Source: Escherichia phage MIZ6
DNA: 64,000 nucleotides
Sequence record: OR192075.1
Strand: one strand, 5' to 3'
Shown piece by piece: positions 3,991-46,782 of this stretch; the stretch's first letter is position 1; each line of letters starts with the position of its first letter. Below the pieces are notes generated by a model that searched no databases, had not been told where the DNA came from, and saw only the letters and a list, made by a program, of their open reading frames with translations. The position numbers and the translations under genes were made by a program.

Positions 3991-4030
3991 GGAAACTCCC
4001 AGGGAAGGGAACTACTAAGGAGAAACGGCT

Positions 4031-4270
4031 ATGGTCTATAATATCGTCATTGGCGCTTTGTCTAATTTCGGAATGAAATTATTGTCAAAGTTAATTAGTG
4101 AAAAGATGCTCACTAAAATTTTCTTCTATTGCGCTCGTCGTCTTGCGGCTTATACCAATACGCCAATTGATGATCGTTTTGTGGAAGAACTTTATAAGGA
4201 GTTTAATAAAGATCAGTCAGAAGATAGTAACGAGCAAGATAAATCTAGTGATAGTCAACTACCTAAATAA
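4031..4270 (+). CDS. Hypothetical small protein (79 aa), hydrophobic N-terminus, acidic C-terminus
   Basis: Strong SD AAGGAG 8 nt before ATG; sits between gp37 and holin. Confidence 0.4.
   Translation: MVYNIVIGALSNFGMKLLSKLISEKMLTKIFFYCARRLAAYTNTPIDDRFVEELYKEFNKDQSEDSNEQDKSSDSQLPK
4263..4270 (+). promoter_or_regulatory. Candidate late promoter element (CTAAATAA) upstream of holin
   Basis: Octamer 34 nt upstream of holin ATG, same spacing as upstream of gp37. Confidence 0.25.
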
Positions 4271-4303
4271 GAGTACACTGTCATAGTTATCTTAGGGCAT
4301 TAT

Positions 4304-4960
4304 ATGCAAGTTTCTGAAAAAGGGAAAGACTTTGCTATCTCAAATGTCCTGCGCGCTATTTTCACAACTAAAAGCACGGAGTTGCTCGTACTTCGTGTTT
4401 TTGCTGCCGTCGTGTTGTCCATATTGGCATTTGTCGTTTATAGTAAAAACGAGTTATTTGCGCTTTATAAAGAGACTCGTTATGAGACTTATGCTCACAT
4501 TCTCCAGGTAGAGAAAGACCGCAATTTTGATAATGCAGCACAGGAGCAGTTACAGATAGTTCATGTGTCGGCTGATGCCGATTTTTCTGCTGTTTTTAGT
4601 TTTCGTCCGAAAAACCTAAACTATTTTGTTGATTTGGTGGCATATGAAGGAAAGCTACCACACACAATCGATGAAAAAAATTTAGGCGGATTCCCTATCA
4701 ATAAAACGAGTGAAGAATATCGTAGGCATCTTTTAGGTAAATCATATTTTACCGATAAAGATTTCCAGTATATTCCATCAAGAGAAAAGAAATTAGAGAA
4801 TATCGATATAGGTTTCATGTATTCTTGTCCTATATTCAATCTCGATAATGTCTATTCTGGTAGTATCGCCATTTCATGGAAGAATAAACCGGATATTGAC
4901 ATTGAGAATTTAGATACTCTTTGCAATCAATCTGCCAGAATCCTCGGAAGGATTAGATAA
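4304..4960 (+). CDS. t: Holin T
   Basis: 218 aa; strong similarity to T4 holin t (YETY, QLQIVH, FSAVFSFRPKNLNYFVD, ARILGR motifs); ATG start. Confidence 0.9.
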   Translation: MQVSEKGKDFAISNVLRAIFTTKSTELLVLRVFAAVVLSILAFVVYSKNELFALYKETRYETYAHILQVEKDRNFDNAAQEQLQIVHVSADADFSAVFSFRPKNLNYFVDLVAYEGKLPHTIDEKNLGGFPINKTSEEYRRHLLGKSYFTDKDFQYIPSREKKLENIDIGFMYSCPIFNLDNVYSGSIAISWKNKPDIDIENLDTLCNQSARILGRIR

Positions 4961-4963
4961 CTT

Positions 4964-4998
4964 AAAGGGGAAGCCTTTCGGCCTCCCCTTCTTTTTAT
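4964..4998 (+). terminator. Intrinsic terminator after holin
   Basis: Hairpin aggggaagcctttcggcctcccct followed by tctttttatt. Confidence 0.5.
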
Positions 4999-5243
4999 TG
5001 GCGCATAGACGCGCCTGAATCGCATTTTGACGCTGTATGATGAAAACAGGTAGCGTACCAGTCATCGGCTTGTTTGTCTTCGTCAGAAAACGCGTAATTT
5101 CGTTGTACGCCGTTTTCTACTTTGACCAGTGCGATAGCTGTTTCTGGAAGATCAATCAATCGGACAAAATCACCATCTTCCCACTCTACACGAGCAATAT
5201 CATAGCCCATCTCAAAGTATACAATCGCTTGTTCTAATTTCAT
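4995..5243 (-). CDS. Hypothetical protein (82 aa)
   Basis: ATG overlaps stop of upstream gene (ATGA coupling). Confidence 0.4.
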   Translation of the reverse strand: MKLEQAIVYFEMGYDIARVEWEDGDFVRLIDLPETAIALVKVENGVQRNYAFSDEDKQADDWYATCFHHTASKCDSGASMRQ

Positions 5244-5569
5244 TCTGGAAACTTCCCGTAAACATTCTCTGCCAGCTTACGTGCGTCTTTTACAATATCT
5301 TTCATGTAATGACTATAATTTTTAGCTAGATCAATGATGCAATCAACAAAGAAGTAATAGCGTCGCAGTGCTACCATCTCAACATCTTCAAGATGACCAT
5401 TTTCTCCAATCTCTGAAATATGTTTAAATTCCTTTCGGATCGCGTCCATCGCGACATTAACTTCTTTTATAATATCTTTCGTATTATATGCACCTCGACT
5501 AATCAAAATTTTGGTTATGTCCTCTGCTTTTTCGTGAAAGTTGTCAATTTCAAACTCGATCATAATCAC
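5240..5569 (-). CDS. Hypothetical protein (109 aa)
   Basis: Track ORF; shares C-terminal pattern with ORF 5678..6010 (possible paralogs). Confidence 0.45.
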   Translation of the reverse strand: MIMIEFEIDNFHEKAEDITKILISRGAYNTKDIIKEVNVAMDAIRKEFKHISEIGENGHLEDVEMVALRRYYFFVDCIIDLAKNYSHYMKDIVKDARKLAENVYGKFPE

Positions 5570-5677
5570 CTCTCATAATTTCACGCTGTTGTGTCAACAT
5601 TTTTTCGTGGTTTGCTAATTCTATACCTTGTAATAGCATAACCAGTGCAATTTTCAATGATTCATCATCTTTCATAA

Positions 5678-6010
5678 TCAAAATTTATCGAAAATATTCT
5701 CTGTCATAATTCTTGCTTCGTCGATTATTTTCGTCATGTTCATGGTGTAGTTATGATCATTTAGTGCTTTAATGACAACGAGCAAGGAATCTAAAAACAC
5801 TCGATACCGGGTATATTCTACGCTATTTGTGAATACCGATGTTTTCTCTACTTTATCGATCAGATAGCCTAAAACCGATAGCGCCTCGTTTACTTCCCTT
5901 GTTACTTTATCGGCGCTAAACAACACCGGATAAAGACGCGGTGTGATTAACCGCGCTGCCTCTTTCAATTCGGTCGCTTTCCAGGATTCATATTTGTCAT
6001 AGTTAAACAT
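5678..6010 (-). CDS. Hypothetical protein (110 aa)
   Basis: Track ORF; possible paralog of 5240..5569. Confidence 0.45.
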   Translation of the reverse strand: MFNYDKYESWKATELKEAARLITPRLYPVLFSADKVTREVNEALSVLGYLIDKVEKTSVFTNSVEYTRYRVFLDSLLVVIKALNDHNYTMNMTKIIDEARIMTENIFDKF

Positions 6011-8114: not shown

Positions 8115-8414
8115 TTATTTTCGCCATTCACCGGAAACAATAAAGTTTGTAAAGTGATCGTGGTCCGTGATAACGTCATTAAGTACCATATGTGGATACA
8201 CTTTAGTGATAATTTTACTAAGTACCATATGCGGATATGCTTTAGTGTAATCACGTTTACGATCAGTCATCCAGCCAACGAAAGTTGGTGCAAAGTACGG
8301 TACACCGTCAGACGATGCCATATTAAACCCTTTATCAACCATAAATGCAGCCGCCCTAAGATTTTTAATTGAAGTAGTGCGACTAATTTCAAAAACTTTA
8401 TCGGTAAAATTCAT
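8115..8414 (-). CDS. Hypothetical protein with internal tandem repeat
   Basis: Start moved to internal ATG (MNFTDK); contains KAYPHMVL / KVYPHMVL duplicated segment. Confidence 0.4.
   Translation of the reverse strand: MNFTDKVFEISRTTSIKNLRAAAFMVDKGFNMASSDGVPYFAPTFVGWMTDRKRDYTKAYPHMVLSKIITKVYPHMVLNDVITDHDHFTNFIVSGEWRK
8181..8251. repeat. Direct tandem repeat (~33 bp units, ~39 bp period) inside ORF 8115..8414
   Basis: aagtaccatatgtggatacactttagtgataat repeated as aagtaccatatgcggatatgctttagtgtaat. Confidence 0.5.
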
Positions 8415-8415
8415 T

Positions 8416-8625
8416 TTAAGCCCCCGCTCGTGCATTAATACGCATTTTCTGCATAGCCATGATCTGGTTTACTGCTTCTTCTTTACGTTCTTGCGTGATA
8501 ACGTGACCAGATTCCGCAAACTCTCCCGCAACTTCTTCTACGATCTCGCGAACTTGAGAACGTCCAAAGATGCGGTTTCCTTCGTAGCTCATAAACTCGG
8601 TTACTACTTGCTCGATAGATTTCAT
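8416..8625 (-). CDS. Hypothetical protein (69 aa)
   Basis: SD AAGGAG; own promoter upstream. Confidence 0.45.
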   Translation of the reverse strand: MKSIEQVVTEFMSYEGNRIFGRSQVREIVEEVAGEFAESGHVITQERKEEAVNQIMAMQKMRINARAGA

Positions 8626-8655
8626 GTGATTCTCCTTTCGTTTCGGTGTGGGAGT

Positions 8656-8684
8656 ATGTTAATACTCCCATTTCTTTACGTCAA
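8656..8684 (-). promoter_or_regulatory. sigma70-like promoter (TTGACG-17-TAACAT) with GGGAGTA..TACTCCC palindrome
   Basis: Palindrome gggagtatgttaatactccc at 8650-8669 overlaps -10. Confidence 0.35.
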
Positions 8685-8691
8685 CCAGTTT

Positions 8692-8934
8692 TTAGAAATT
8701 TTTCGCTTCTTCTTCGGTCATCATCACCGCGCATTCGTGCATAACTTTGAAAACCGGGTCAATCATATCGAATGCTTCGCTGGACAGTTTACGAGAAGCG
8801 ATTTTGATTGCTTCAACGTCTTCTACTACAGGAACAAAAACAGTTTTCAGTTCGTCGAGCACGGCAGCTTCTTTTTCATTCAGGAAGATCCCAGCGTCGT
8901 ACAGTGCAACTTCGATAACATTAACTTTAACCAT
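8692..8934 (-). CDS. Hypothetical acidic protein (80 aa)
   Basis: SD GGAGGA; own promoter upstream. Confidence 0.45.
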   Translation of the reverse strand: MVKVNVIEVALYDAGIFLNEKEAAVLDELKTVFVPVVEDVEAIKIASRKLSSEAFDMIDPVFKVMHECAVMMTEEEAKNF

Positions 8935-8967
8935 TTTATTTCCTCCAGTTCGTTTCGGTATGGGAGT

Positions 8968-8996
8968 ATAATACTACCGATGACCTTTGGCGTCAA
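8968..8996 (-). promoter_or_regulatory. sigma70-like promoter (TTGACG-17-TATTAT)
   Basis: Minus-strand reading of cgtcaa and ataata; degenerate GGGAGTA palindrome. Confidence 0.35.
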
Positions 8997-9198
8997 CTGC
9001 TTTTTTATTATTTTCGTGAAAATTTTTCGTCGCCTCATGTGCTTTTCGCTGGGCTTCTTGTTGTGCTTGCTGGCGTGCTGCCTCTTGTGAAGCCATAACG
9101 GAAGCATTTGCAGCAGTTACAGCCGCTACCATCGCTGCGGTATTAGCATTTACAGTACATGCACTAGCCAGCAAAGCAATTGCAATCATTTTCTTCAT
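8974..9198 (-). CDS. Small secreted or lipoprotein-like protein (74 aa)
   Basis: N-terminal signal peptide MKKMIAIALLASAC with Cys; Ala/Gln-rich mature part. Confidence 0.4.
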   Translation of the reverse strand: MKKMIAIALLASACTVNANTAAMVAAVTAANASVMASQEAARQQAQQEAQRKAHEATKNFHENNKKAVDAKGHR

Positions 9199-9365
9199 AG
9201 TTTCCCCTTTAGGTTATCTTCGACCTTCACCCATTCCGCGTATTCTTGCGCGGCTACTTTCGGATTTAGTCCGTCTTCGTACATTGCTTCAAGTAATTCT
9301 TCGTCGGTGGGCTTATACCCTAGATAAGCCTCCACCTGATTTTTCCAAATTTTATACCAGTTCAT
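9195..9365 (-). CDS. Hypothetical protein (56 aa)
   Basis: Start moved to internal ATG (MNWYKIW) to remove overlap with upstream gene. Confidence 0.3.
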   Translation of the reverse strand: MNWYKIWKNQVEAYLGYKPTDEELLEAMYEDGLNPKVAAQEYAEWVKVEDNLKGKL

Positions 9366-9369
9366 ATTA

Positions 9370-9642
9370 TCACCAGTCAAGAGCGCGTGTCTCTGCGTCT
9401 TCCCATGCTTGATCCATAACAGCCTTGAAAACATATTCTAAAGTATCATCTTTAGAGAATCCGAAGACCTTAGACGGAATATCTTCAATTGCTACTCCCG
9501 CGACTTCTGCATTACGCGCTTGGCAATAATGCAACTCTAAGTTATCGAGATAGCGACCGCCTAATTTCTCCATATCATCCCAGCATTTCCAGTAACCTAC
9601 TTTATTTGCAATCGCTAACACCTTGCTGTTTTCGTTGTTCAT
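9370..9642 (-). CDS. Hypothetical protein (90 aa)
   Basis: Start moved to ATG (MNNENSK) with SD AAGGAG; promoter and terminator upstream. Confidence 0.4.
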   Translation of the reverse strand: MNNENSKVLAIANKVGYWKCWDDMEKLGGRYLDNLELHYCQARNAEVAGVAIEDIPSKVFGFSKDDTLEYVFKAVMDQAWEDAETRALDW

Positions 9643-9673
9643 CTTTGATTCTCCTTTTGTTTGGTATGTGTGT

Positions 9674-9702
9674 ATTATGCAATGATGGATTTGTGAAGTC
9701 AA
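9674..9702 (-). promoter_or_regulatory. sigma70-like promoter (TTGACT-17-CATAAT)
   Basis: Minus-strand reading of agtcaa and attatg. Confidence 0.35.
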
Positions 9703-9715
9703 CAACTTTTTAAAA

Positions 9716-9742
9716 TAAAAAAGCCGACCACACGGATCGGCT
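9716..9742 (-). terminator. Intrinsic terminator
   Basis: Hairpin agccgaccacacggatcggct; minus-strand RNA followed by U-run. Confidence 0.45.
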
Positions 9743-9752
9743 TAATAATCAG

Positions 9753-10145
9753 TTACTTACTAAATTTCTTTTTGGCTTCGTCTACCGCATGAGATGCCAG
9801 TACCGCAGCCGCATGTGCACTTTTATCTGTGTTGCAGAGAACACCCAGATAAACATCACGCCAAAGTTTAATCATCTCGTAGATCATATCAATATCATTT
9901 TCTTGTTTGTTGGCGATGCTATTCGTCGTTATCTGGTAAGGTAACGGCTTAATCTGTACTGGTTCCGCCATCGGGCTAAACGGTTTCGGATCAGTCATCG
10001 GATTAATTGATGGCGATGTTTTCCATACGTCATTATTCCACGGTTTAACGGTTGTACCGTATATTTTATAAGGATTTTTGTCTGGATCAACCATCCATGC
10101 ATGATGGATACCTAAACCATTTGAAGTGATGCGTCGTTCAGTCAT
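9753..10145 (-). CDS. Hypothetical protein (130 aa)
   Basis: ATG with SD GAGGGGG. Confidence 0.45.
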   Translation of the reverse strand: MTERRITSNGLGIHHAWMVDPDKNPYKIYGTTVKPWNNDVWKTSPSINPMTDPKPFSPMAEPVQIKPLPYQITTNSIANKQENDIDMIYEMIKLWRDVYLGVLCNTDKSAHAAAVLASHAVDEAKKKFSK

Positions 10146-10344
10146 GTTTTACCCCCTCTGATAATTCTTTCATCAAGCTGTCGATCTTTGCTCTGTGTTC
10201 TGGCGTGTTTGTCATCTCTGCTAATTTGCTCAGAGATTCACTGGTGATCCGGTTGGATTCTTCCAGTGTTTCAACGACAATTGGCACAATCTTTTTATTG
10301 TTGTACAGAAATGCAATATAACCGCCTTCTGGATATTCTTTCAT
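10138..10344 (-). CDS. Hypothetical protein (~68 aa)
   Basis: Track start is TTG; moved to ATG (MKEYPEGG). Confidence 0.4.
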   Translation of the reverse strand: MKEYPEGGYIAFLYNNKKIVPIVVETLEESNRITSESLSKLAEMTNTPEHRAKIDSLMKELSEGVKHD

Positions 10345-10346
10345 AA

Positions 10347-11711
10347 TCAACCCTTCTTAAGTTCTTTAAGATCTTTCTTATATTCCTTCATTGCGGTCGT
10401 CTTTGTCCAATACTCATATTCACTATGATGTTTCTCGGCATCTTTGACCAGTCGATCATACTCTTCTTGAGTAACGCTATACAATGGCATAGAAACTAGC
10501 TTATCGGCGTATGGACGCAGTTTTTCATGTCCATTGATGGATTGCATTACATCGGCCTTTTTCTTTCCCTGTAGCTCGATTTCGCCATTAATTACGAGAT
10601 CGATAAATTCGGCTTTAGCCATTGCATAATTGTATGCTTCCAGCGTTTCCGCTTGCATCAATTCAATGCGTTTATCGACATACCCTAATCGGATTTCGAC
10701 GAATCGACGGATCAGATCGCTCGCTTTCTCGAATACTTCTACTAAACCACGTTCATTAACCACTACGATATTCTGGGCTACTAACTGTGTTAGTTTAAAA
10801 TCCTTCATGATTTGCTCATGTCGAGCGGATTCATCTTCGCTTTTGAAATAATCGCGTTTCAGTGTTACTTCAAATCTGAATCCATCCTTAGAGCAACGGT
10901 CATTATATGAGACAATCAGATCTTTTTCTTCCAGTGCATCCAGTACCGCTACATATTCTTCACGGTCGAACTTATAAGGGACTTCTGATATTGTCAGCTT
11001 AGTCTTGCCGTTTAGTTCATATGTACCCTCAAGAATCACACCATCGCGATCATCTCGCGGGATAACTTTACCCGTGAATTTCGGGAATTGAACACTAGGT
11101 TCTTTATCCAGTTTTCCGGCAAGTGCTAGCTCTGTGCATTCAATGAGGCTTTCCAGTGAATGCGGTAAAATGTCAGTTTTATACCCTGTAGCAATACCAC
11201 TAATACCATTAGCCAATACCATTGGCACAACTGGCAAGTAGAACGCTGGCGGGATGTGTTCCAGATCTTCGTGCTTAGGTGCGCAATTCATATCTTTATA
11301 GATTTTAAAGAAGTTTTCATGCACGCGAGCAAAGATATAACGTGCCGCACCTGCTTTCTGGACTAAACGCGATCCGAAGTTACCTTGACCGTCAAGCAGT
11401 GGAGTATTATTGCTCCATGTATTCGCCATAAGTGATCCGGCTTCTACGGCATTAGTTTCCCCGTGGTGATAACCCAACTCGGCAACACCAGATCCAATAT
11501 CTGCCATCTTACGGAATTTCTTACGGTCGCCTTTACTCTTTTGCAAAGCACATTCCATAACAAAGCGTTGCACTGGTTTAAGCCCATCCACTAATTGAGG
11601 AATCCCGCGTTCCTCGGCAGAATAGATCGCATATTCCTTAGCTTCATTATGTACAATGCTTTCAAGGCTGCGGTAAGTAAATGTGTTTACAATTTGACTA
11701 ATTTTATCCAT
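10347..11711 (-). CDS. 52: DNA topoisomerase II medium subunit (GyrA-like)
   Basis: Strong similarity to T4 gp52 (DGLKPVQRFV, GYHHGE, LLDGQGNFGSR); track GTG start replaced by ATG (MDKIS) with SD GAGGTG. Confidence 0.9.
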   Translation of the reverse strand: MDKISQIVNTFTYRSLESIVHNEAKEYAIYSAEERGIPQLVDGLKPVQRFVMECALQKSKGDRKKFRKMADIGSGVAELGYHHGETNAVEAGSLMANTWSNNTPLLDGQGNFGSRLVQKAGAARYIFARVHENFFKIYKDMNCAPKHEDLEHIPPAFYLPVVPMVLANGISGIATGYKTDILPHSLESLIECTELALAGKLDKEPSVQFPKFTGKVIPRDDRDGVILEGTYELNGKTKLTISEVPYKFDREEYVAVLDALEEKDLIVSYNDRCSKDGFRFEVTLKRDYFKSEDESARHEQIMKDFKLTQLVAQNIVVVNERGLVEVFEKASDLIRRFVEIRLGYVDKRIELMQAETLEAYNYAMAKAEFIDLVINGEIELQGKKKADVMQSINGHEKLRPYADKLVSMPLYSVTQEEYDRLVKDAEKHHSEYEYWTKTTAMKEYKKDLKELKKG

Positions 11712-11718
11712 CTTCACC

Positions 11719-12081
11719 TCATACACGCTTACAAATCACATTCTTTACTTTATCAGATTTATCAGCCCAATCCAATAGCCATTTTAACGGAAGGATTGAC
11801 ACAATAAACGGGGCAGCAATCAAAGCAAACATGATACACCTGATAATCAGGAAAACGCAAGTGACAAAACTAGCGATAGTGATCCCGACAAAACAAAATA
11901 CCATAGAAAACAGAGTAATGATATAGAAAGGCCAGAATACCCACTCCCGCATCTTAACGCCTTTGTATTCTCTGAATTGCTTAAAATCTACAAACAACTC
12001 TCGGATAGACGCGTACAGGACCGAAAAATCATCTTTCATTGCTCTGAATGAGCAATCTTCTATTTTAGAATGACCTAGCAT
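11719..12081 (-). CDS. Hypothetical membrane protein (120 aa)
   Basis: Two or three hydrophobic helices; ATG start. Confidence 0.4.
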   Translation of the reverse strand: MLGHSKIEDCSFRAMKDDFSVLYASIRELFVDFKQFREYKGVKMREWVFWPFYIITLFSMVFCFVGITIASFVTCVFLIIRCIMFALIAAPFIVSILPLKWLLDWADKSDKVKNVICKRV

Positions 12082-12083
12082 TA

Positions 12084-12377
12084 TTAACCGCCTTTCATCA
12101 TTGATACTGGAATTGTTTTCTGATTTGTGTATAACTGGCCTACTTCAATTTTTTCTTGAATCACCACGACGTTACAATATCCACTGTCTTTAAGTTTTCT
12201 GATAATAACTCGCTTTTGTTCGTCGGTGATAGGATTGACTGTTCTCACCAATTCACCGCAAATAATAGCACCATCTTTACAATTACCAGTAACTTTCATG
12301 CTACGACCGTGAACAACAACCACATCACCGTAAATCACATTTTCGTCGTCGTATTTGGTAATAACCGTGACCGTCAT
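12084..12377 (-). CDS. Hypothetical protein (97 aa)
   Basis: ATG with SD AGAGGGAA. Confidence 0.4.
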   Translation of the reverse strand: MTVTVITKYDDENVIYGDVVVVHGRSMKVTGNCKDGAIICGELVRTVNPITDEQKRVIIRKLKDSGYCNVVVIQEKIEVGQLYTNQKTIPVSMMKGG

Positions 12378-12387
12378 AATGTATTCC

Positions 12388-12415
12388 CTCTAAGAAAGGC
12401 CGCGCAAAGCGGCCT
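12388..12415 (-). terminator. Putative terminator or leader hairpin
   Basis: Hairpin aggccgcgcaaagcggcct with U-rich tail on minus strand, overlapping downstream SD. Confidence 0.35.
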
Positions 12416-12422
12416 ATGTTGA

Positions 12423-12749
12423 TTATTGTTCTACAGTATAGCCGTTGTTTTCAAGCCATGCAATAACAATCTTTTCGCCAATTTCATCGAGCATTTCATC
12501 AGCGCCATATTCTTTAATGAAAGTCGATGGATCATTATTGCTTACTACGTGCTGGATCACAACATGTTCAGGAATTGCGTCTAGCAGTTCGCTATGATCA
12601 TACTCATTAACGATATCTTCAACACTAACATTATTAACCAAATCAACATCATCCATAGTCACAGTAACGCGACCGGACGGACGCAATGAATATTGGCTAC
12701 TTTCAACTTCAACATGTGCACTTTCGCAAGTAACTTTCATATCAACCAT
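12423..12749 (-). CDS. Hypothetical acidic protein (108 aa)
   Basis: ATG with SD GAGGAA. Confidence 0.4.
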   Translation of the reverse strand: MVDMKVTCESAHVEVESSQYSLRPSGRVTVTMDDVDLVNNVSVEDIVNEYDHSELLDAIPEHVVIQHVVSNNDPSTFIKEYGADEMLDEIGEKIVIAWLENNGYTVEQ

Positions 12750-12763
12750 AATTAATTCCTCTG

Positions 12764-13765
12764 TTAGTAATGGCTAAAACCTTCGGTTACATCTTCAACC
12801 ACATAGTAACGATGACAGCGCATTTTGGCATTCGCATAATCTTTCGGGATACTTACAACGTGACGCGGATCAACTTTACATTTAATGATTCGGCCTCGTC
12901 CACCGCCATAGTGCGGAATATAGTGTTTCGCTGCAACGTGGAGTCCATTAGAGCAAGTGCGATCATCATCTGGGTCCACGTCTTTACGCTTCATTTTAAC
13001 CGTGCGCCCTGGGCTATTATCAAACGTATGCGTAAAGAAATCTTTATAATCAACATCAACACGTTTCCATGCATAGAAACAACCATCTTCCCCGATCTCA
13101 ATGTCGTTGTGCTCTAAGAAGTCAAATAGACGATCTACCGCCTTACGGCTAGGGTTTTTCTTGCACTTCTCAAAGAAGTTCAGATAGTGCGTATATGGCT
13201 TATTCTCTTTAATCGACTCCACAACTCGACGAGTCAGATTATTATCAAGAACAATATTATGATAATACACAATACCATTTTCGATACGGAAAGCGCCGTG
13301 ATAATATACTTCAACCGCTTTCTTAATGTCAATCAGCGTAATAGCTTTGATGAAATCATTATGTTTAATCGCTTCCAGTGCTTCATTAAAGTTAACATGC
13401 GACGGATCAGCAGTATAAACAATGTCACCACATGTAATAGTAATAAACTTAGTTGAGGCTATTGCTACGATTTTTGAGGAAGTAGTCACGGGCTTTTTTG
13501 CGCGTTCACCTCCTTTTCCTTTACTGGTTTTACGGCGTGCTTTACGTTTTTCTAGTGCCTTGCGACCTTCCGCTACTGCGTCTTTCTGAATCAGTAATAC
13601 ACGGGAAGCAGTACGACGAGATACCCCAAATGCTGCCGCAAGTGCTTCGCGGGTAGTAAACTTACCTTCGCCCCACTGTTTAGCCAGTTTGATTTGTTTT
13701 TCAGAATCCAGGCATTGAACGTTACGGTCAGAGACGGTGATTTTTGCTTTAGTCATAGTATTCAT
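12764..13765 (-). CDS. rIIB: rIIB protein
   Basis: 333 aa; strong similarity to T4 rIIB (SRLFDFL..NDIEI.EDG.FYAWK, TFDNSPG, MRCHRYYVVEDVTE). Confidence 0.9.
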   Translation of the reverse strand: MNTMTKAKITVSDRNVQCLDSEKQIKLAKQWGEGKFTTREALAAAFGVSRRTASRVLLIQKDAVAEGRKALEKRKARRKTSKGKGGERAKKPVTTSSKIVAIASTKFITITCGDIVYTADPSHVNFNEALEAIKHNDFIKAITLIDIKKAVEVYYHGAFRIENGIVYYHNIVLDNNLTRRVVESIKENKPYTHYLNFFEKCKKNPSRKAVDRLFDFLEHNDIEIGEDGCFYAWKRVDVDYKDFFTHTFDNSPGRTVKMKRKDVDPDDDRTCSNGLHVAAKHYIPHYGGGRGRIIKCKVDPRHVVSIPKDYANAKMRCHRYYVVEDVTEGFSHY

Positions 13766-41078: not shown

Positions 41079-41120
41079 AGTCTCTTCCTCTCTTCGTTTT
41101 CGATGCTCTCACTATATCAC

Positions 41121-41146
41121 AGAAAAATAAAAAGGGAAACCCCTTT
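41121..41146 (-). terminator. Intrinsic terminator
   Basis: Hairpin aaagggaaaccccttt with U-run on minus-strand RNA. Confidence 0.4.
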
Positions 41147-41168
41147 CAGAGTCTCCCTTATAAAGCCA

Positions 41169-41457: not shown

Positions 41458-41691
41458 TTATTTTACCTCTGGGATATAATCAATTATTAAAGAAAATTCA
41501 TCTTCTGATACATTATAGCTATGTGAGATTGTACCCGTAAAGACCTCAAGATCCGGTGATTTGATATTGCACGGATCGATAATCACCGGAACGCCGCAAT
41601 CTCTCAAAAATAATTTGGCGAAATACGGCACGAGGTCAGTTTCAAACTCTGCTTCTTCCAGCAAACGGGAAATGTTAATTTTCAATCTCAT
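41458..41691 (-). CDS. Hypothetical protein (77 aa)
   Basis: Track ORF. Confidence 0.4.
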
Positions 41692-42208
41692 AAAATTGGT
41701 CCAAGCTAGGCAATTCCTCGGTCAATACATCTTCAACCTTTGGCGCTTTCGGTTTATTGACCGATTCCTCGTAGTTGTTGATTTTATCGTAAATGTCCTG
41801 TATGAATGCCTCATCAGCAATCTGGCACATATCAGCGTCGCGTTCGTCATATACATGATGCACAAAATATTTGTATTTTGCGGCTGTCGCTGTTCTTTCT
41901 TTTTTAATGCGCTGTACAAAAGCATTAAAGCACGCTTGCGTGATGTAAGCATGAGGATTTTTATACTTTGTCTCGTCAAAATTAATCAAACCCTTGACCG
42001 CCGCTTCGATTCCGTCGTCGATCATTTCTTCGCGCCATGTTTGACTATAACCAGAAAAGTTAAAACGACGTGATAGATTTTTAGAGATTTGCATAATTGC
42101 TAGGCCGATTTGATCGCTCATTGGAACTTGCCGACCTTCTGCTGCAATTTGTTGTTTCCAACGGCAAATTTCTTCGTAAAGCTCTTTATTGTTTACATAA
42201 TCAGACAC
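41675..42208 (-). CDS. 55: Late sigma factor
   Basis: Strong similarity to T4 gp55 ([38 protein letters not shown]); GTG start with SD GAGGGTG. Confidence 0.85.
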
Positions 42209-42248
42209 TTCGCACCCTCGCTATTATTTAGGAAATAACCCTTTCGGG

Positions 42249-43718
42249 CTATTCCCCATTACCATTATACTTTCTTTGCTTAGTTATCCACACTCTAACC
42301 ATCTCTACGGATTCACCGTCAGACGGATCAAGAGTTTTTCCTTTTTTCTTCATGCGGTACTTAAATCCGTTAAATCTTGCATTCTCTTGCTCGTTAAAGT
42401 CGAACATCTTTTTAAATGATTTTCGCCCTTTACGCTCACCGCATTCTAGCGGAATCATTCGGTCTGTTATTACATTGGCATTAGGCAGAAACGTTTTTAG
42501 ATAATCCACCAACGCCCAATCAGGAACATATAGATTAACATTCTCCTTGCTCTCGTTGTCTCTCAGGTTACAACGCAAACATAATTGAAATGCTGGTTCC
42601 AGATAATCAGACACATGACGCGCTTTCAAAAACTCGTTTGTTGGGAGATCACAACTATTAGCAAGACCTTTTAAAATATCAATCTCCCATCGTTGAGGGT
42701 TAAAGCTGAACATCACAGCAACATTTTTATGATGAATGTAAGAGTTAAGACCATAAGATCCGTAAGGTATCCGCTCACCAATACCATTTGTGCACGCTTC
42801 ACGGTCCCGATTCACGGTATAAATGAAGTCATCACCACATTCATTTTTAACCATATCAACAAGACGTTCAAAGGTATTGTTTGTTTCTGACTGGTGACGC
42901 GACCATCGTTCGGAGTCCGTCATAAGGATGATGTTAACTCTATCTGTATTTTTATACTCTTTGAAATATAGTCTGGATTCTAGCGCACTCGGAACAAAAT
43001 CGCAATTTGCATAGTATCGTAGATACTTCCCACTATATGTATCAAAGAGATTTGCACATGCTATCGTAACCTTTTTAAAGTCTCCCCACGTACCGTGTTT
43101 GTTATCGTTCAAGAAAACAATTTTCGACCCATTCTTCCGGTGTCCTTCGTTATGTTTTACCATAACGTTGATTTTCTTCTCTAATAACGCCTCATAAAGC
43201 CCTCTAAGAGAAGAATCGATCATATCAGTACCATCCTTTGCACTTTCTATCTTTTCTTTGATAGCGGCCTTCTCAGAGTCTTTTAGAACTAAGTTCTGTA
43301 GGCATTCCGATTCGTCGGCGATTGGTTCGCAATGCTTCGTGATAAGTTCAAGATTAGACTTAAACGGATACTCATTAAATTCAACCAGTTGAGGAACTTC
43401 ATCAATGTAAAGAGCATATTCACCAAACATTTTTGAACGTTCCATATTAGATAACGCTGTATGTGTAATGAATATCACATCAGCACCATCTTTAACTGAT
43501 TGCATTATAGACGCTTGCACTGTCTTAAGGCTTCTTAGTCTTGTGCTATCAATCAAGACAGCACGACCGCCCATTCTTTTAAACTTATTGTAAGATTGTT
43601 CACTTAAAACACGAGATGGCGAAGCAATAACCGCTTTTTCTTTTGTCTCTAGGACGTGGGAAAGTATAGCATCAGTTTTCCCCGCCGCTGGCAATGCGAT
43701 TAATGTTTCAATCTTCAT
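42249..43718 (-). CDS. P-loop NTPase, SF2 helicase-like N-terminal domain, function unknown
   Basis: Walker A PAAGKT, motif Ia-like SPSRVLSEQ, Walker B YIDEVPQ; 489 aa; no T4 counterpart I can recall. Confidence 0.5.
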   Translation of the reverse strand: MKIETLIALPAAGKTDAILSHVLETKEKAVIASPSRVLSEQSYNKFKRMGGRAVLIDSTRLRSLKTVQASIMQSVKDGADVIFITHTALSNMERSKMFGEYALYIDEVPQLVEFNEYPFKSNLELITKHCEPIADESECLQNLVLKDSEKAAIKEKIESAKDGTDMIDSSLRGLYEALLEKKINVMVKHNEGHRKNGSKIVFLNDNKHGTWGDFKKVTIACANLFDTYSGKYLRYYANCDFVPSALESRLYFKEYKNTDRVNIILMTDSERWSRHQSETNNTFERLVDMVKNECGDDFIYTVNRDREACTNGIGERIPYGSYGLNSYIHHKNVAVMFSFNPQRWEIDILKGLANSCDLPTNEFLKARHVSDYLEPAFQLCLRCNLRDNESKENVNLYVPDWALVDYLKTFLPNANVITDRMIPLECGERKGRKSFKKMFDFNEQENARFNGFKYRMKKKGKTLDPSDGESVEMVRVWITKQRKYNGNGE

Positions 43719-44005
43719 TAGAAACCCTTACGTCGTGCTTTCTGGCATTTCTTGATCATTTTATCAGAAATTTCGCGCTTAGGTGCAATCTCTTTCACAC
43801 CGAAAGCACTAATGCCAAATTCAGAGAGAATATATTCAACTAACAATTCACGCACACGCGCTTTACCGATATTCACGCCGTTATTTTTCAGATATGTCTG
43901 GCCTTCGACTTGCATCAGATCTAAATCAGCGTCGGTAATATTGATTTCTTCCATGCGCCCAAATCGAGAGTAAACCATGTGTGCGATTGTATTGTGTACT
44001 AACAT
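43718..44005 (-). CDS. Hypothetical protein (95 aa)
   Basis: Track TTG start replaced by ATG (MLVHNT) with SD GAGGAA. Confidence 0.4.
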   Translation of the reverse strand: MLVHNTIAHMVYSRFGRMEEINITDADLDLMQVEGQTYLKNNGVNIGKARVRELLVEYILSEFGISAFGVKEIAPKREISDKMIKKCQKARRKGF

Positions 44006-44026
44006 AATATATTCCTCACTCAAGAA

Positions 44027-44185
44027 TTACTTAATGATACTTACTTTACCAGATCCGTGACAATGAGCGCAACACCCATCACCACGCAATCCTGTTCCGT
44101 TACAGTGTTTACACTTCTTCAACGGTAAAGCCATTATAACAAATAAAGCAATAATGAACACCGAAACTAAATTCTCAATAATCAT
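44027..44185 (-). CDS. Membrane-anchored miniprotein with two DnaJ-type CxxCxGxG zinc-finger motifs (52 aa)
   Basis: Hand-translated MIIENLVSVFIIALFVIMALPLKKCKHCNGTGLRGDGCCAHCHGSGKVSIIK; SD GAGGG. Confidence 0.35.
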   Translation of the reverse strand: MIIENLVSVFIIALFVIMALPLKKCKHCNGTGLRGDGCCAHCHGSGKVSIIK

Positions 44186-44444
44186 AAATCGCCCTCAGTT
44201 CTTTATAGCCTCCAATGTGCTCGTTGTTAATGAATATCTGGGGGTATACAAACCGGAGGCTCTTTGAGTTCAGCCTCCCCGCCAGTTCTTCAATCATATC
44301 ACGGTCGGGAATAATGTCAACCCCGACCTGCTTGAATACTGGTTTAAGTGTATACGGAATACCCAGATCATCCAGTAGCTTCATTGCACTAATACAACCA
44401 TAACAATGATAAGCCTCTTTCGGTATGCCGTATATCTCGATCAT
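44175..44444 (-). CDS. Glutaredoxin/NrdH-like redoxin
   Basis: 89 aa; CYGC active-site motif and C-terminal IGGYKEL pattern. Confidence 0.6.
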   Translation of the reverse strand: MIEIYGIPKEAYHCYGCISAMKLLDDLGIPYTLKPVFKQVGVDIIPDRDMIEELAGRLNSKSLRFVYPQIFINNEHIGGYKELRAIYDY

Positions 44445-44917
44445 TTCTCAGCCTTTAATCTTTCTAGTTCTTCTTCCAGTTCCTTGATCCGTTGGTCACG
44501 TTCAAAGTCACGTTGTAGCTTAGTGGCAAATACCCGCTTAAACTGATTGTAATCATCGATTTTAAACACTTCTTCTTCGCCATAGCGACGTACAGAAACT
44601 TCGTAGTTATTGAAGAATTGTTGCATCATTGCTTCGGATGATAGTTCTGCTGATACTACTTTAAAATATTGATCTTCTGTAGGCGAAAACCAATTACAAG
44701 CATAAAGATAAACCTTTTCATTGTCTGGGCACTGGTAAGCCTTACCATCGATTTCAATCACAGAAACATATTCAGGTATAGTAGATGAATCAATAGCTAA
44801 GACTTTAAACTGACGGTCCCCGATAAACTCAGAGATCACACGATTCGCATCACTGGTTGCAAAGGCTTTACGCGCTTGTTCGCTTTTCCACTGATAGGTC
44901 ATACCAACAACAAACAT
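44441..44917 (-). CDS. Family-A paralog (novel ~90-aa domain plus coiled-coil tail)
   Basis: TYQWKSEQARKAF...IEIDGKAY...QYFKVV core; C-terminal KELEEELERLKAEK; track TTG start moved to ATG. Confidence 0.5.
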   Translation of the reverse strand: MFVVGMTYQWKSEQARKAFATSDANRVISEFIGDRQFKVLAIDSSTIPEYVSVIEIDGKAYQCPDNEKVYLYACNWFSPTEDQYFKVVSAELSSEAMMQQFFNNYEVSVRRYGEEEVFKIDDYNQFKRVFATKLQRDFERDQRIKELEEELERLKAEK

Positions 44918-44918
44918 A

Positions 44919-45743
44919 TTACCAACCTCGCTCTTTACCAATCAAAAATTCAACTTCACGACGTTTAATGTCTTCTTGAAGGTCTTTAATCTTCTGGCGA
45001 TCTTGCATGATTTCGTCCATTTTGTCAAGTGCTGCAATAAAATCATCGAAACGTTCAAAGGTTTTACCTTCATTTGCTTCGCCAAATTTAACCATAGTCA
45101 GACCGTAACGACTACTAAACAGACGTTTCAACTGTCCAACGATCTTAGAATCAGTGGTTATAACTTCCAATTCTTCTACTTCTTGAAAGAATTTTCTATC
45201 AGAATCAATAAACCAGCTAGTTCCTTTATGGTTGCTATCTTCGGTTGCACTCATTAGAGTATGGTCTTTACCATCAATTTCAATTACATCAATTTGCCCA
45301 CATGGACGAACATTTTTAACAGTAAAAGGTCTATAATTTATTGCTCGTGCAATAACATAATTAAGGTTAGATACGTTTTCAGCATAATGGCAGAAGTCGG
45401 TCATAGCATTCGCATCTTTCCAAGTATAAGTTTTACCAACTTCCCATTTCTGGGGAACTTCTTCAACTTCACGAAAGAATTTTCTATCGAATGGACTAAA
45501 GAAATATGTTGCCGTCCAAATGTCTTTTCCTGTAGCAGTTTTCGCCGTATGATAAACACCGTCTAGCTCTATTGCATTAATCCAACCATTACCCTCGATC
45601 TCGATGATGGTAAATGGCTTGTCACCAATAGCTGCACTAATATCGCTATTAAGTGGAGAAAGAACACCTTCTCCGTTAGTAATAAACTCAGTTTTAGCGT
45701 TTACATCTTTCCAGGTGTAAGTTTTACCAATTTCCCATTTCAT
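44919..45743 (-). CDS. Family-A paralog with two tandem copies of the domain
   Basis: MKWEIGKTYTWKD...RKFFREVEE then QKWEVGKTYTWKD...RKFFQEVEE; helical C-terminus. Confidence 0.5.
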   Translation of the reverse strand: MKWEIGKTYTWKDVNAKTEFITNGEGVLSPLNSDISAAIGDKPFTIIEIEGNGWINAIELDGVYHTAKTATGKDIWTATYFFSPFDRKFFREVEEVPQKWEVGKTYTWKDANAMTDFCHYAENVSNLNYVIARAINYRPFTVKNVRPCGQIDVIEIDGKDHTLMSATEDSNHKGTSWFIDSDRKFFQEVEELEVITTDSKIVGQLKRLFSSRYGLTMVKFGEANEGKTFERFDDFIAALDKMDEIMQDRQKIKDLQEDIKRREVEFLIGKERGW

Positions 45744-45755
45744 AATATATTCCCC

Positions 45756-46256
45756 TTAACCGATTTTATCAAGTTCGTTTAATGCTTTCTCTGCTTCCTG
45801 TATAGCTTGCACCCTTTCCGGCATTTTGTCAAGAAAATCTTTCAACTCTTCAAAACTGGAGATATGACGCAAGGCATTAGCACCGATAGCCGCATGTGAT
45901 TTGCATTCAAAGCGAATTTTATAATTATCCATAGCCAATTTGAGAAGATCAATTAGATCATATTCACGACCAGGCAATAAAACTTCTTTGAAGCACGCTC
46001 GGTCGCCATCGGAAAACCATATATTATCGCCAACATCGATAGAACTAATATAATCCCCTTCGTGATTATAGATTGAACGTACATTACCCCAACGGTCTAC
46101 AGTAGCGACAGTAAATGGTTTATCTAGATATGTAAACACACCATCAATATTAGGTTTTTGTTCGTAACGCCAACAATCACGCAAAATACGCTTTTCGTAC
46201 TCACCAACCAACTTATATGTCTTCCCTTCTTCCCATTTCATAATATCATCTCTCAT
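45756..46256 (-). CDS. Family-A paralog
   Basis: MKWEEGKTYKL...RACFKEV; conserved C-terminal F.ELKDFLDKMP module. Confidence 0.5.
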   Translation of the reverse strand: MRDDIMKWEEGKTYKLVGEYEKRILRDCWRYEQKPNIDGVFTYLDKPFTVATVDRWGNVRSIYNHEGDYISSIDVGDNIWFSDGDRACFKEVLLPGREYDLIDLLKLAMDNYKIRFECKSHAAIGANALRHISSFEELKDFLDKMPERVQAIQEAEKALNELDKIG

Positions 46257-46782
46257 TTTTGATATGTGATTCTAATTGGATCATACGGTCGCGCGTTTGC
46301 TTATATTCTCGGATAGCACCGATCCGGCTAGGCATACCATCCAGTACGCTCTTAATCCCTTCTAGGGTAGTGATTTTAGCAATACTATTATGCAATCCCA
46401 TCTTATCGATTAACTGAATGTCGTAGGCTTCCATAAGCAGACCCAGACGTTCTAAAGTTAGGTCTTCTTCTTTTTCTTCCGATTCTGGAATCTTAGGTTC
46501 AATAGTAACTTCGGTAAAGAAACGACGCTCGCCCGACCAAAACCACACACCGGAACAGCCAATAGGGGATTCTTTTAACGTCATAGAGTCGTAACCGCTG
46601 CCGATAATAGTAATTTCTCTAACATCACCATCATCGTCAATGTCTTCTACCCTAAACGGGCGACCAGCCAACAAGTCAACAATACATCTGTTAATAGACG
46701 ACGAAAATTTAGTCAGTTCGGCTTTCGACGCTTCGCATTCAATCTTGTAAGTTTTACCAACTTCCCATTCCATAATAATCAC
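46246..46782 (-). CDS. Family-A paralog
   Basis: MEWEVGKTYKI...RRFFTEV; C-terminal LEGIKSVLDGMP module. Confidence 0.5.
   Translation of the reverse strand: MIIMEWEVGKTYKIECEASKAELTKFSSSINRCIVDLLAGRPFRVEDIDDDGDVREITIIGSGYDSMTLKESPIGCSGVWFWSGERRFFTEVTIEPKIPESEEKEEDLTLERLGLLMEAYDIQLIDKMGLHNSIAKITTLEGIKSVLDGMPSRIGAIREYKQTRDRMIQLESHIKNER

Follow-up and report, generated by a model that had tools for sequence, protein, structure and literature searches.

A predicted superfamily 2 helicase with XPD/DinG-like architecture encoded beside the late sigma factor gene of T4-related phages

The DNA considered here, hereafter the window, is a stretch of 64,000 nucleotides from Escherichia phage MIZ6 (record OR192075.1) and is a segment of a Krischvirus genome. 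Its minus strand carries, at 42249..43718, a gene located between gene 55.2 and the late sigma factor gene, 55, that encodes a protein of 489 amino acids (aa). A preliminary description made from the letters alone had noted this open reading frame (ORF) as a large helicase-like P-loop NTPase of superfamily 2 (SF2). The ORF is present there and complete, with an ATG start and, in the ORF list, its stop codon at 42249-42251. The word "large" holds only in a relative sense, as 489 aa is small for an XPD/DinG-type helicase.

The 489-aa protein is 100% identical to RB49p044 (NP_891615), annotated as a hypothetical protein, and matches PHROG 2467, a phage family of unknown function, over its full length (E=8.8e-175, residues 1-489 on positions 8-502 of the 502-position profile). 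The 2.9 kb around the gene are 100% identical to Escherichia phages MIZ2 and MIZ3 and 99.3% identical to RB49. The RB49 copy of the gene differs from the window copy at 8 nucleotides, all 8 in third codon positions and all synonymous, and divergent full-length phage homologues occur at 35-42% identity. Because of these two observations, the comparison indicates a real gene under constraint rather than a chance ORF.

Anatomy and family assignment of the protein

Two sets of homologues were used to delineate the protein. Alignment A1 contains the window protein and 41 full-length homologues (42 rows) from a collection of 5.8 billion proteins. An exhaustive HMMER search of 1.84 billion cluster representatives detected 1,330 relatives, 766 of them at E<=1e-10, and 134 of the 1,330, at about 20% identity to the query, formed a deeper alignment. 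Conservation in A1 spans the whole chain, beyond the N-terminal third. The only invariant residues among the 134 relatives are the Walker A lysine (K14), the Walker B acids (D106 and E107), G323 and N325 in the motif V region, and, in motif VI, the glutamine Q378 and two arginine fingers, R382 and R386. The invariance of these motif residues points to a working NTPase. An AlphaFold2 (AF2) model built from the 42-sequence alignment had a mean predicted local distance difference test score (pLDDT) of 87.6 and a predicted TM-score (pTM) of 0.75.

The first part of RecA-like domain 1 (residues 1-112; 43383..43718, minus strand, as are all features of the protein given below) comprises a strand at residues 2-7, Walker A, motif Ia, the segment FITHTAL (83-89; conserved in the 42 rows of A1 as FITHxAL) and Walker B. 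It is delimited by the AF2 model, by a Pfam DEAD match on residues 11-130 and by profile alignments of PDB sequences to the DEAD-box motif I/Ia/Ib region. The motifs PAAGKT, SPSRVLSEQ and YIDEVPQ, which the preliminary description had placed in the N-terminal third, were located at residues 10-15, 33-41 and 104-110. P10-AAGKT-15 (43674..43691) is Walker A, or motif I, with G13, K14 and T15 invariant in A1; S33-PSRVLSEQ-41 (43596..43622) is a motif Ia-like segment that the profile alignments place on the DEAD-box "PTReLa.Q" region; and Y104-IDEVPQ-110 (43389..43409) is Walker B, or motif II, a DExx box containing the invariant D106 and E107.

The C-terminal two-thirds, left unassigned in the preliminary description, can now be divided by the AF2 model and the alignment into an insertion domain, the rest of the helicase core and a tail of about 70 residues. 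The insertion, of about 100 aa (residues ~113-215; 43074..43382), directly follows Walker B, is predicted to contain 4-5 helices and about 3 strands, and leaves 112 residues between motifs II and III. By its position and composition in the model it appears arch-like. The chain then returns to RecA-like domain 1 (residues 216-257; 42948..43073) with a predicted strand at 216-221 and a motif III-like segment, VTIACAN in the window protein and TIA(C/S)AN in A1 (218-223; family consensus xAN), in which A222 is near-invariant among the 134 relatives and N223 is near-invariant in A1. RecA-like domain 2 (residues ~258-420; 42459..42947) includes FIYTVN (298-303), YGLNSY (322-327), FSFNP (337-341) and YVPD (397-400), of which FIYTxN, GLN (323-325) and FSFNP are conserved in A1. 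Its motif VI, E374-PAFQLCLRCNLR-386 (42561..42599), carries Q378, R382 and R386, and the pattern EPAFQLCxRxxxR (374-386) is invariant in A1.

The C-terminal tail (residues 421-489; 42252..42458) was defined by pLDDT, predicted secondary structure and composition. It consists of a low-confidence, disordered basic linker (426-431), a conserved segment, S434-FKKMFDF-441, and a helical hairpin (443-458 and 468-486), and contains 17 lysine and arginine residues versus 10 acidic ones. This basic helical tail probably binds nucleic acid or a partner.

Pfam DEAD (PF00270) was the sole curated family above threshold (E=3e-6; 27.4 bits versus a curated cut-off of 26), and NCBIfam gave no family. When PDB sequences were searched, neither the single protein nor the 42-sequence profile had a meaningful match, and the 134-sequence profile matched RecA1 domains, at 4.6e-7 for DDX52 and at up to about 2e-4 for Mss116, reverse gyrase, PriA, Mfd and UvrB. 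Two distant relatives matched Csf4 models, at the P-loop level only. SF2 features were found in the GK[T/S] Walker A, in the DExx Walker B (IDEVP, 105-109) and in a second RecA-like domain bearing the motif VI arginine fingers. In a Foldseek search with the AF2 model, the XPD/DinG family occupied ranks 1-16; XPD/DinG matches aligned over 313-370 residues, versus at most 266 for core-only SF2 proteins. The predicted fold is that of SF2, with XPD/DinG closest.

The SF2 assignment of the preliminary description is thus upheld by the Pfam DEAD match, the PDB profile matches and the SF2 fold matches, and the structure prediction and Foldseek search suggested there gave a confident model with XPD/DinG neighbours on top. 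The protein is very probably an active SF2 NTPase with XPD/DinG-like architecture. The family, annotated as hypothetical everywhere and unstudied, is one of SF2 helicases with an XPD/DinG-like architecture free of an iron-sulfur (Fe-S) domain. In a 2006 comparison of five T4-like genomes, RB49ORF044c was listed with a marginal DEAD/DEAH Pfam match at E=0.069 (PMC1524935); literature searches on the locus tags, on phage DinG/XPD-like helicases and on Krischvirus escape mutants found nothing beyond this table entry.

Genomic neighbourhood and distribution among T4-related phages

On the minus strand the genes are ordered nrdH, a 52-aa zinc-ribbon ORF, 55.2, the helicase gene, a 40-nt spacer and gene 55. 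Gene 55.2 (43718..44023) encodes a true gp55.2 homologue (47% identity, both DUF7570), and its stop codon overlaps the helicase start codon in the sequence TAATG. Gene 55 (41675..42208, also minus strand) has a GTG start and lies 40 nt past the helicase stop. In T4 the order is nrdH-55.6..55.3-55.2-55.1-55, followed by a-gt.5..a-gt beyond gene 55, and the 489-aa gene therefore occupies the slot of T4 55.1 and not that of a-gt. The preliminary description had correctly placed agt and small 55.x ORFs in this neighbourhood of T4, and its account is now refined to the 55.1 slot, with a-gt across gene 55. The T4 occupant of this slot, gp55.1, is an unrelated 87-aa ORFan (DUF5495), to which the 489-aa protein has no similarity. 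T4 gp55.1 blocks host nucleotide excision repair via UvrA, and T4 gp55.2 inhibits host topoisomerase I (PMC4396842). A functional pairing of the helicase with gp55.2 was considered but lacks support: T4 keeps 55.2 without the helicase, and in two lineages the two genes are 1.2-2.3 kb apart.

The minus strand of the nrdH-55 stretch contains no terminator-like hairpin, and no late-promoter motif was found upstream of the helicase gene. Hence the simplest reading is that the gene is co-transcribed early with 55.2 and 55. The spacer at 42209-42248 (minus strand), from the helicase stop to the GTG of gene 55, contains a small hairpin, AGCCC-GAAA-GGGTT. The same spacer holds CTAAATA, the only late-type motif nearby, which resembles the annotated GTAAATA of RB49 and not the T4 motif TATAAATA; the latter occurs once in the whole window, versus 5.7 occurrences expected. 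RB49 also encodes dda, 41 and uvsX, and the 489-aa gene is therefore an extra helicase gene and not a replacement.

Several other features of this region were observed. The 52-aa ORF (44027-44185, minus strand) lies between nrdH and 55.2 and overlaps nrdH in ATGA. It encodes a hydrophobic N-terminal segment followed by CKHCNGTG...CCAHCHGSG, a zinc-ribbon pair of the DnaJ-type CxxCxGxG kind, has weak NCBIfam matches to DnaJ and anti-TRAP, and belongs to PHROG 3931 (unknown function). Between nrdG and nrdH, at 44441-46782 on the minus strand, four tandem ORFs of 166, 274, 166 and 178 aa are paralogues at 25-31% identity; all four open with a W-E-x-G-K-T-Y-type motif, and the 274-aa ORF carries the module twice. 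This array, RB49p048-051, is a locally duplicated gene family of unknown function. In RB49 a 555-bp HNH/AP2 homing-endonuclease gene, RB49p040, is inserted between a-gt.4 and gene 47 (8551-9210 of the RB49 locus stretch). The window lacks RB49p040: it has an identical 90-nt spacer at 41079-41168, and the HNH sequence has no match anywhere in the window. RB49p040 is a presence/absence polymorphism of a mobile endonuclease.

Among phage records, tblastn at E<=1e-5 identified the helicase in 243, including 58 Krischvirus-type copies at >=95% identity and 185 others below 60%. Since gp55 was found in 1,880 records, the helicase accompanies it in about 13%. When records were grouped by the first word of the organism name, Aeromonas had 77 records with gp55 and 77 with the helicase, Escherichia 611 and 53, Klebsiella 278 and 9, and Enterobacter 56 and 18; the name groups listed for the helicase did not include Synechococcus/cyanophage, Acinetobacter or Vibrio. 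The gene was seen directly in the lineages Krischvirus, Pseudotevenvirus (RB43), Biquartavirus (phage 31), Ceceduovirus, Ishigurovirus, Bragavirus, Nanhuvirus and Roskildevirus. The gene stays beside 55 and/or 55.2: of the lineages sampled, six have gene 55.2 immediately upstream and two have it 1.2-2.3 kb away, and in RB43 the helicase gene is followed by gene 34. This pattern looks like vertical inheritance with loss in T4/RB69-type lineages.

These data agree with the claim, made in the preliminary description, that the protein has no obvious T4 counterpart. No T4-type homologue was detected by tblastn, nothing homologous to a conserved core protein of T4 turned up at this position, gp55.1 is dissimilar, and 53 of the 611 Escherichia gp55 records matched. 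The survey of phylogenetic distribution proposed there gave 243 phage records from at least 8 genera, without a T4-type match. Erwinia phage Cronus (Roskildevirus, Tevenvirinae) has both the helicase gene and an alpha-glucosyltransferase gene, and the idea that the helicase is an alternative to hydroxymethylcytosine (hmC) glucosylation was therefore rejected.

A scan of genome contigs yielded two loci only, and no bacterial context. The two, in records titled Bacilli metagenome-assembled genome (MAG) and Flagellimonas marina, carry close homologues together with gp55 or gp55.2, one on a contig of 178 kb; both contigs seem to represent genomes of T4-like phages that were binned or co-assembled with those of bacteria. 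Upstream of the helicase gene of Aeromonas phage 31 lies a gene (5441-6004 of its locus stretch) that matches PHROG 768, named "DprA-like DNA recombination-mediator". As it has no Pfam match, to DprA or otherwise, this label rests on remote clustering only. A functional link via this neighbour was discarded: it is confined to the phage 31/25 group, has no Pfam match behind it and bears no relation to the gene that lies upstream in CC2/65.

Relatives outside the T4-related phages

The wider family exceeds 1,000 clusters at 50% identity. In a library of viral structures, the same fold was found in Agrobacterium jumbo phage Atu_ph07, Ralstonia phiRSL1, Fusobacterium Fnu1, Achromobacter Motura and Pseudoalteromonas H101, in each case in an uncharacterized protein. 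Among 146 more distant representatives (of the best 150 listed), two size classes are prominent, one of about 450-560 aa (67 proteins) and the other of about 700-860 aa (57 proteins).

In the short forms, helix-turn-helix (HTH) models HTH_23, HTH_7 and HTH_29 matched the tails of 4 of 9 scanned relatives of about 500 aa, all below threshold. Two bacterial copies of this size reside on integrase/resolvase islands, where the next gene downstream is of the TIR type or encodes DUF4062, one on the Thalassotalea fonticola chromosome (8213-13234 of locus L015) and one at 1529-5202 of locus L018. These islands have a divergent serine resolvase gene upstream and, downstream, a gene-free gap of 0.55-0.65 kb followed by a DUF4062 or TIR_2/SEFIR gene; the combination of helicase and TIR-type gene is not in PADLOC. 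A further relative, on a 146-kb phage-like contig (locus L016), is preceded by genes for an N6/N4 methyltransferase and a CapR/HNH-type endonuclease and followed by a gene-free stretch of 1.2 kb (11497-12672) with families of direct repeats of 24-32 nt, in 3-4 copies each, and a 39-nt inverted repeat. This stretch looks origin-like or regulatory.

The long forms have one homologous extension of about 350-400 aa, common to 54 of 54 sampled proteins, with the motifs LDxDxG, NSxS...RxRVxIP and GxDxxK...SxFYLPC and a helical end. It gave repeated sub-threshold matches to PriCT_1 (best 9e-4; 0.004 over 57 of 67 model positions), RepB_primase_C and a PHROG "DNA primase", and no match among PDB sequences. 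The 489-aa protein lacks this extension, and its tail is not homologous to it. An 814-aa long form lies in the order integrase, AlpA-like HTH_17 gene, 814-aa protein, cargo. In P4-like satellites and phage-inducible chromosomal islands (PICIs), the slot after integrase and AlpA is that of the primase/replicase of the element. Loci of relatives of about 800 aa were found on two metagenomic contigs (8168-12445 of L020 and 6023-10300 of L021) and on the Bradyrhizobium sp. 172 chromosome (L019). Other long forms adjoin a resolvase, AAA_25 and exonuclease genes, or an ATP-dependent ligase. A plasmid search with a long relative gave only three weak matches, unannotated, on Sinorhizobium megaplasmids. 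From these contexts it seems that the helicase core often serves mobile elements as a replication protein, and the ~800-aa relatives are possibly an undescribed SF2 helicase-primase, of reversed domain order, of integrative elements.

Proposed function and comparison with known systems

We favor the view that the 489-aa protein is an accessory DNA helicase or translocase whose mechanism resembles that of DinG and which serves the replication, recombination or repair of phage DNA, and assign this view a probability of about 0.55. The protein would be a stripped-down XPD/DinG helicase, with two RecA-like motors, an arch-like insertion after Walker B and no iron-sulfur domain. By analogy with DinG, CasDinG and XPD, single-stranded DNA (ssDNA) would be bound across both motor domains, and ATP hydrolysis via K14, D106/E107 and the arginine fingers R382 and R386 would drive 5'->3' movement. 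Duplex DNA or RNA:DNA hybrids could then be separated, or proteins stripped, against the insertion domain. Transcription of the gene would run leftward together with 55.2 and 55, as it does for the neighbouring early genes for replication, recombination and nucleotide metabolism, and the protein might have a non-core accessory role, for example in processing R-loops, D-loops or stalled forks. We infer DNA rather than RNA as the substrate, as well as the 5'->3' polarity, the early timing and the biological role. Among the roles offered in the preliminary description, a helicase is the favored one; no link of the gene to DNA modification is apparent, Cronus having both it and an alpha-glucosyltransferase gene, and known anti-restriction and defence families gave no match.

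Several observations weigh against this view. No XPD/DinG model of Pfam or NCBIfam was matched, and neither profile retrieved DinG or XPD among PDB sequences; the affinity to XPD/DinG is structural only, in a predicted model, and the likeness of the insertion to an arch comes from its position and composition. Sequence profiles reach generic SF2 RecA1 domains only, with DEAD-box RNA helicases topping the matches. With no Fe-S domain, the protein would lack one half of the pore through which XPD/DinG proteins guide ssDNA, and polarity and unwinding are not simply transferable. The gene is absent from about 87% of gp55-encoding phages and is therefore dispensable for a T4-type life cycle, and with Dda, gp41 and UvsX all present in RB49, there is no evident gap among the helicase functions for it to fill. 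Promoter matches of the sigma-70 type do lie upstream of 55.2, at a frequency no higher than in shuffled sequence. Finally, the literature searches found no biochemical or genetic study of any family member.

Other explanations were weighed against the same data. The protein could be a replication-initiator helicase whose tail recognises a site or structure in phage DNA (an origin or R-loop) and opens it, providing an initiation route that T4 lacks and comparable to the rep-ori modules of satellites and islands. Relatives indeed join the same helicase core to a C-terminal HTH or primase-like extension, a long form takes the int/alpA/replicase position on an island, and a gene-free gap of 0.55-1.2 kb follows the gene in three non-T4 contexts, one of them rich in direct repeats of 24-32 nt and with one inverted repeat of 39 nt. 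However, the two bacterial gaps have no convincing iterons, which leaves iterons in one gap of the three, and the window gene is only 40 nt from gene 55, with no iteron-like element seen beside it. Moreover, no HTH model matches the T4-like tail, the tail shares no homology with the primase-like extension, and all primase and HTH signals fall below curated thresholds. One relative weakly matches the herpes origin-binding-protein helicase family; a UL9-like origin-binding protein as such is unsupported, this being one weak match in one relative, with none in the top 50 viral fold matches. We regard an initiator role as unlikely. A broader proposal would make the protein the domesticated motor of an undescribed mobile-element replication module, in which an XPD/DinG-like SF2 helicase is fused, in the order reverse to known primase-helicases, to an archaeo-eukaryotic primase (AEP)/RepB'-like primase with a PriCT end. 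In T4-related phages it would act, through its DNA-binding tail, as a stand-alone, dedicated initiator or R-loop enzyme, possibly with the co-translated topoisomerase I inhibitor gp55.2, giving an initiation or R-loop route that T4 lacks; we consider this distinctly unlikely.

A role in conflict, either countering host defence (CRISPR/Cascade R-loops, Argonaute or restriction complexes) or excluding rival phages and mobile elements, seems unlikely. The protein had no meaningful match to 5,027 PADLOC models (the sole match, at E=0.009 to an unrelated model, is spurious), its relatives gave only weak P-loop-level matches there, and no effector is adjacent in the phage. Its identity of 35-42% and syntenic position across at least 8 genera look like vertical inheritance of the housekeeping type and not like arms-race turnover. 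In Aeromonas the counts of gp55 and helicase records are equal, 77 each. A DEAD-box-type RNA helicase or ribonucleoprotein remodeller, acting on phage transcripts or on the late-transcription machinery of the adjacent gene 55, would fit Pfam DEAD as the only match above threshold, the DEAD-box proteins DDX52, Mss116 and DDX42 as top PDB sequence matches and the location immediately upstream of gene 55. Membership of the DEAD-box family was rejected on the absence of a Q motif and on the sequences DEVP, xAN and QxxxRxxxR, and we judge this function very unlikely. The least probable possibility, in our estimate, is a clamp-tethered helicase in which S434-FKKMFDF-441 binds gp45 as the C-termini of gp43, gp55 and gp33 do, so that the protein is brought to forks or to late transcription complexes activated by the clamp. 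In the model, the segment comes right after the one disordered linker, and it has the 8-residue hydrophobic register of the gp43 and gp55 ends of the window phage (SLTDLFDI and SLDQFYEI); a pattern covering all three is found nowhere else in the window ORFs, which total 44,442 aa. In gp55-gp33 fusions, a clamp epitope placed internally can be functional (PMC2988020). However, the joint pattern was derived with the target, which makes the test circular; a matrix trained on gp55 and gp43 tails only ranks the segment 144th of 36,216 octamers; and segment and hairpin are kept in near relatives outside T4-like phages that lack gp45, including a Neptuniibacter genome. For these reasons the clamp idea is unsupported; in addition, the third position is Q or K and not the conserved acidic residue.

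T4-type phages are a reference system for the enzymology of replication and recombination, and about one in eight gp55-encoding genomes of the collection, including apparently every Aeromonas T4-like phage in it, has this helicase. As an accessory DNA helicase it would add a fourth helicase type to T4-type replication systems and would be a minimal, Fe-S-free model of the XPD/DinG architecture that could separate the contributions of arch and Fe-S domain to unwinding. The probable fusions of SF2 helicase and primase in the replication slot of islands point to unrecognised replication proteins of mobile elements. In addition, PHROG 2467 and hundreds of phage genomes could be re-annotated, with "XPD/DinG-like SF2 helicase" in place of "hypothetical". 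The fold assignment itself is unsurprising for an accessory phage NTPase, and no novelty at the level of mechanism is demonstrated.

Among known systems, the P4-like and PICI primase-helicases resemble the ~800-aa relatives in the int/AlpA/replicase slot, in DxD-type motifs and in a PriCT-like end. In the ~800-aa proteins, however, the order is reversed, with the helicase N-terminal and the primase-like part, for which the evidence is sub-threshold, C-terminal, and the helicase is of the SF2 XPD/DinG-like type and not SF3 or SF4. The T4 accessory helicases Dda (SF1B) and UvsW (SF2) have no sequence homology to the 489-aa protein and differ in the insertion after motif II. DEAD-box proteins align with its RecA1 motifs I, Ia and Ib. 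They differ in that the 489-aa protein lacks a Q motif (the chain begins 9 residues before the P-loop), has DEVP for DEAD, (C/S)AN for SAT and QxxxRxxxR (QLCxRxxxR) for HRxGRxGR, carries a big insertion between motifs II and III, and gives a weaker structural match.

The 489-aa protein differs from XPD/DinG proteins in several respects. Its identity to them is only about 10-15%, without a match at the sequence level; it has 489 aa versus 550-890 and no N-terminal accessory domain; and it is a phage-encoded, stand-alone protein with a unique basic helical C-terminal tail. It also lacks the 4Fe-4S domain: there is no Cys at residues 43-105, and the interval between motifs Ia and II amounts to about 60 residues, core elements included. 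Among its cysteines, the T4-like clade conserves C130 and C380 alone, and no Cys is conserved across the 134 relatives. Since the Fe-S and sequence-profile tests gave no positive result and the arch match is positional only, we describe the protein as XPD/DinG-like in architecture and do not file it as a member of the XPD/DinG family. CasDinG likewise has no Fe-S cluster, yet it retains a vestigial domain; its Walker B acids are D337 and E338, and its arch, a 4-helix bundle with a 3-stranded sheet, follows Walker B at residues 352-467 (PMC10450177). The 489-aa protein has not even a vestigial Fe-S domain, and the closest known systems are the SF2 helicases of the XPD/Rad3/DinG family, above all the cluster-less CasDinG (type IV CRISPR) and Staphylococcus aureus DinG. 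With the arch of CasDinG, the predicted insertion at ~113-215, which follows D106/E107, agrees in position, in its size of about 100 aa and in its alpha+beta content.

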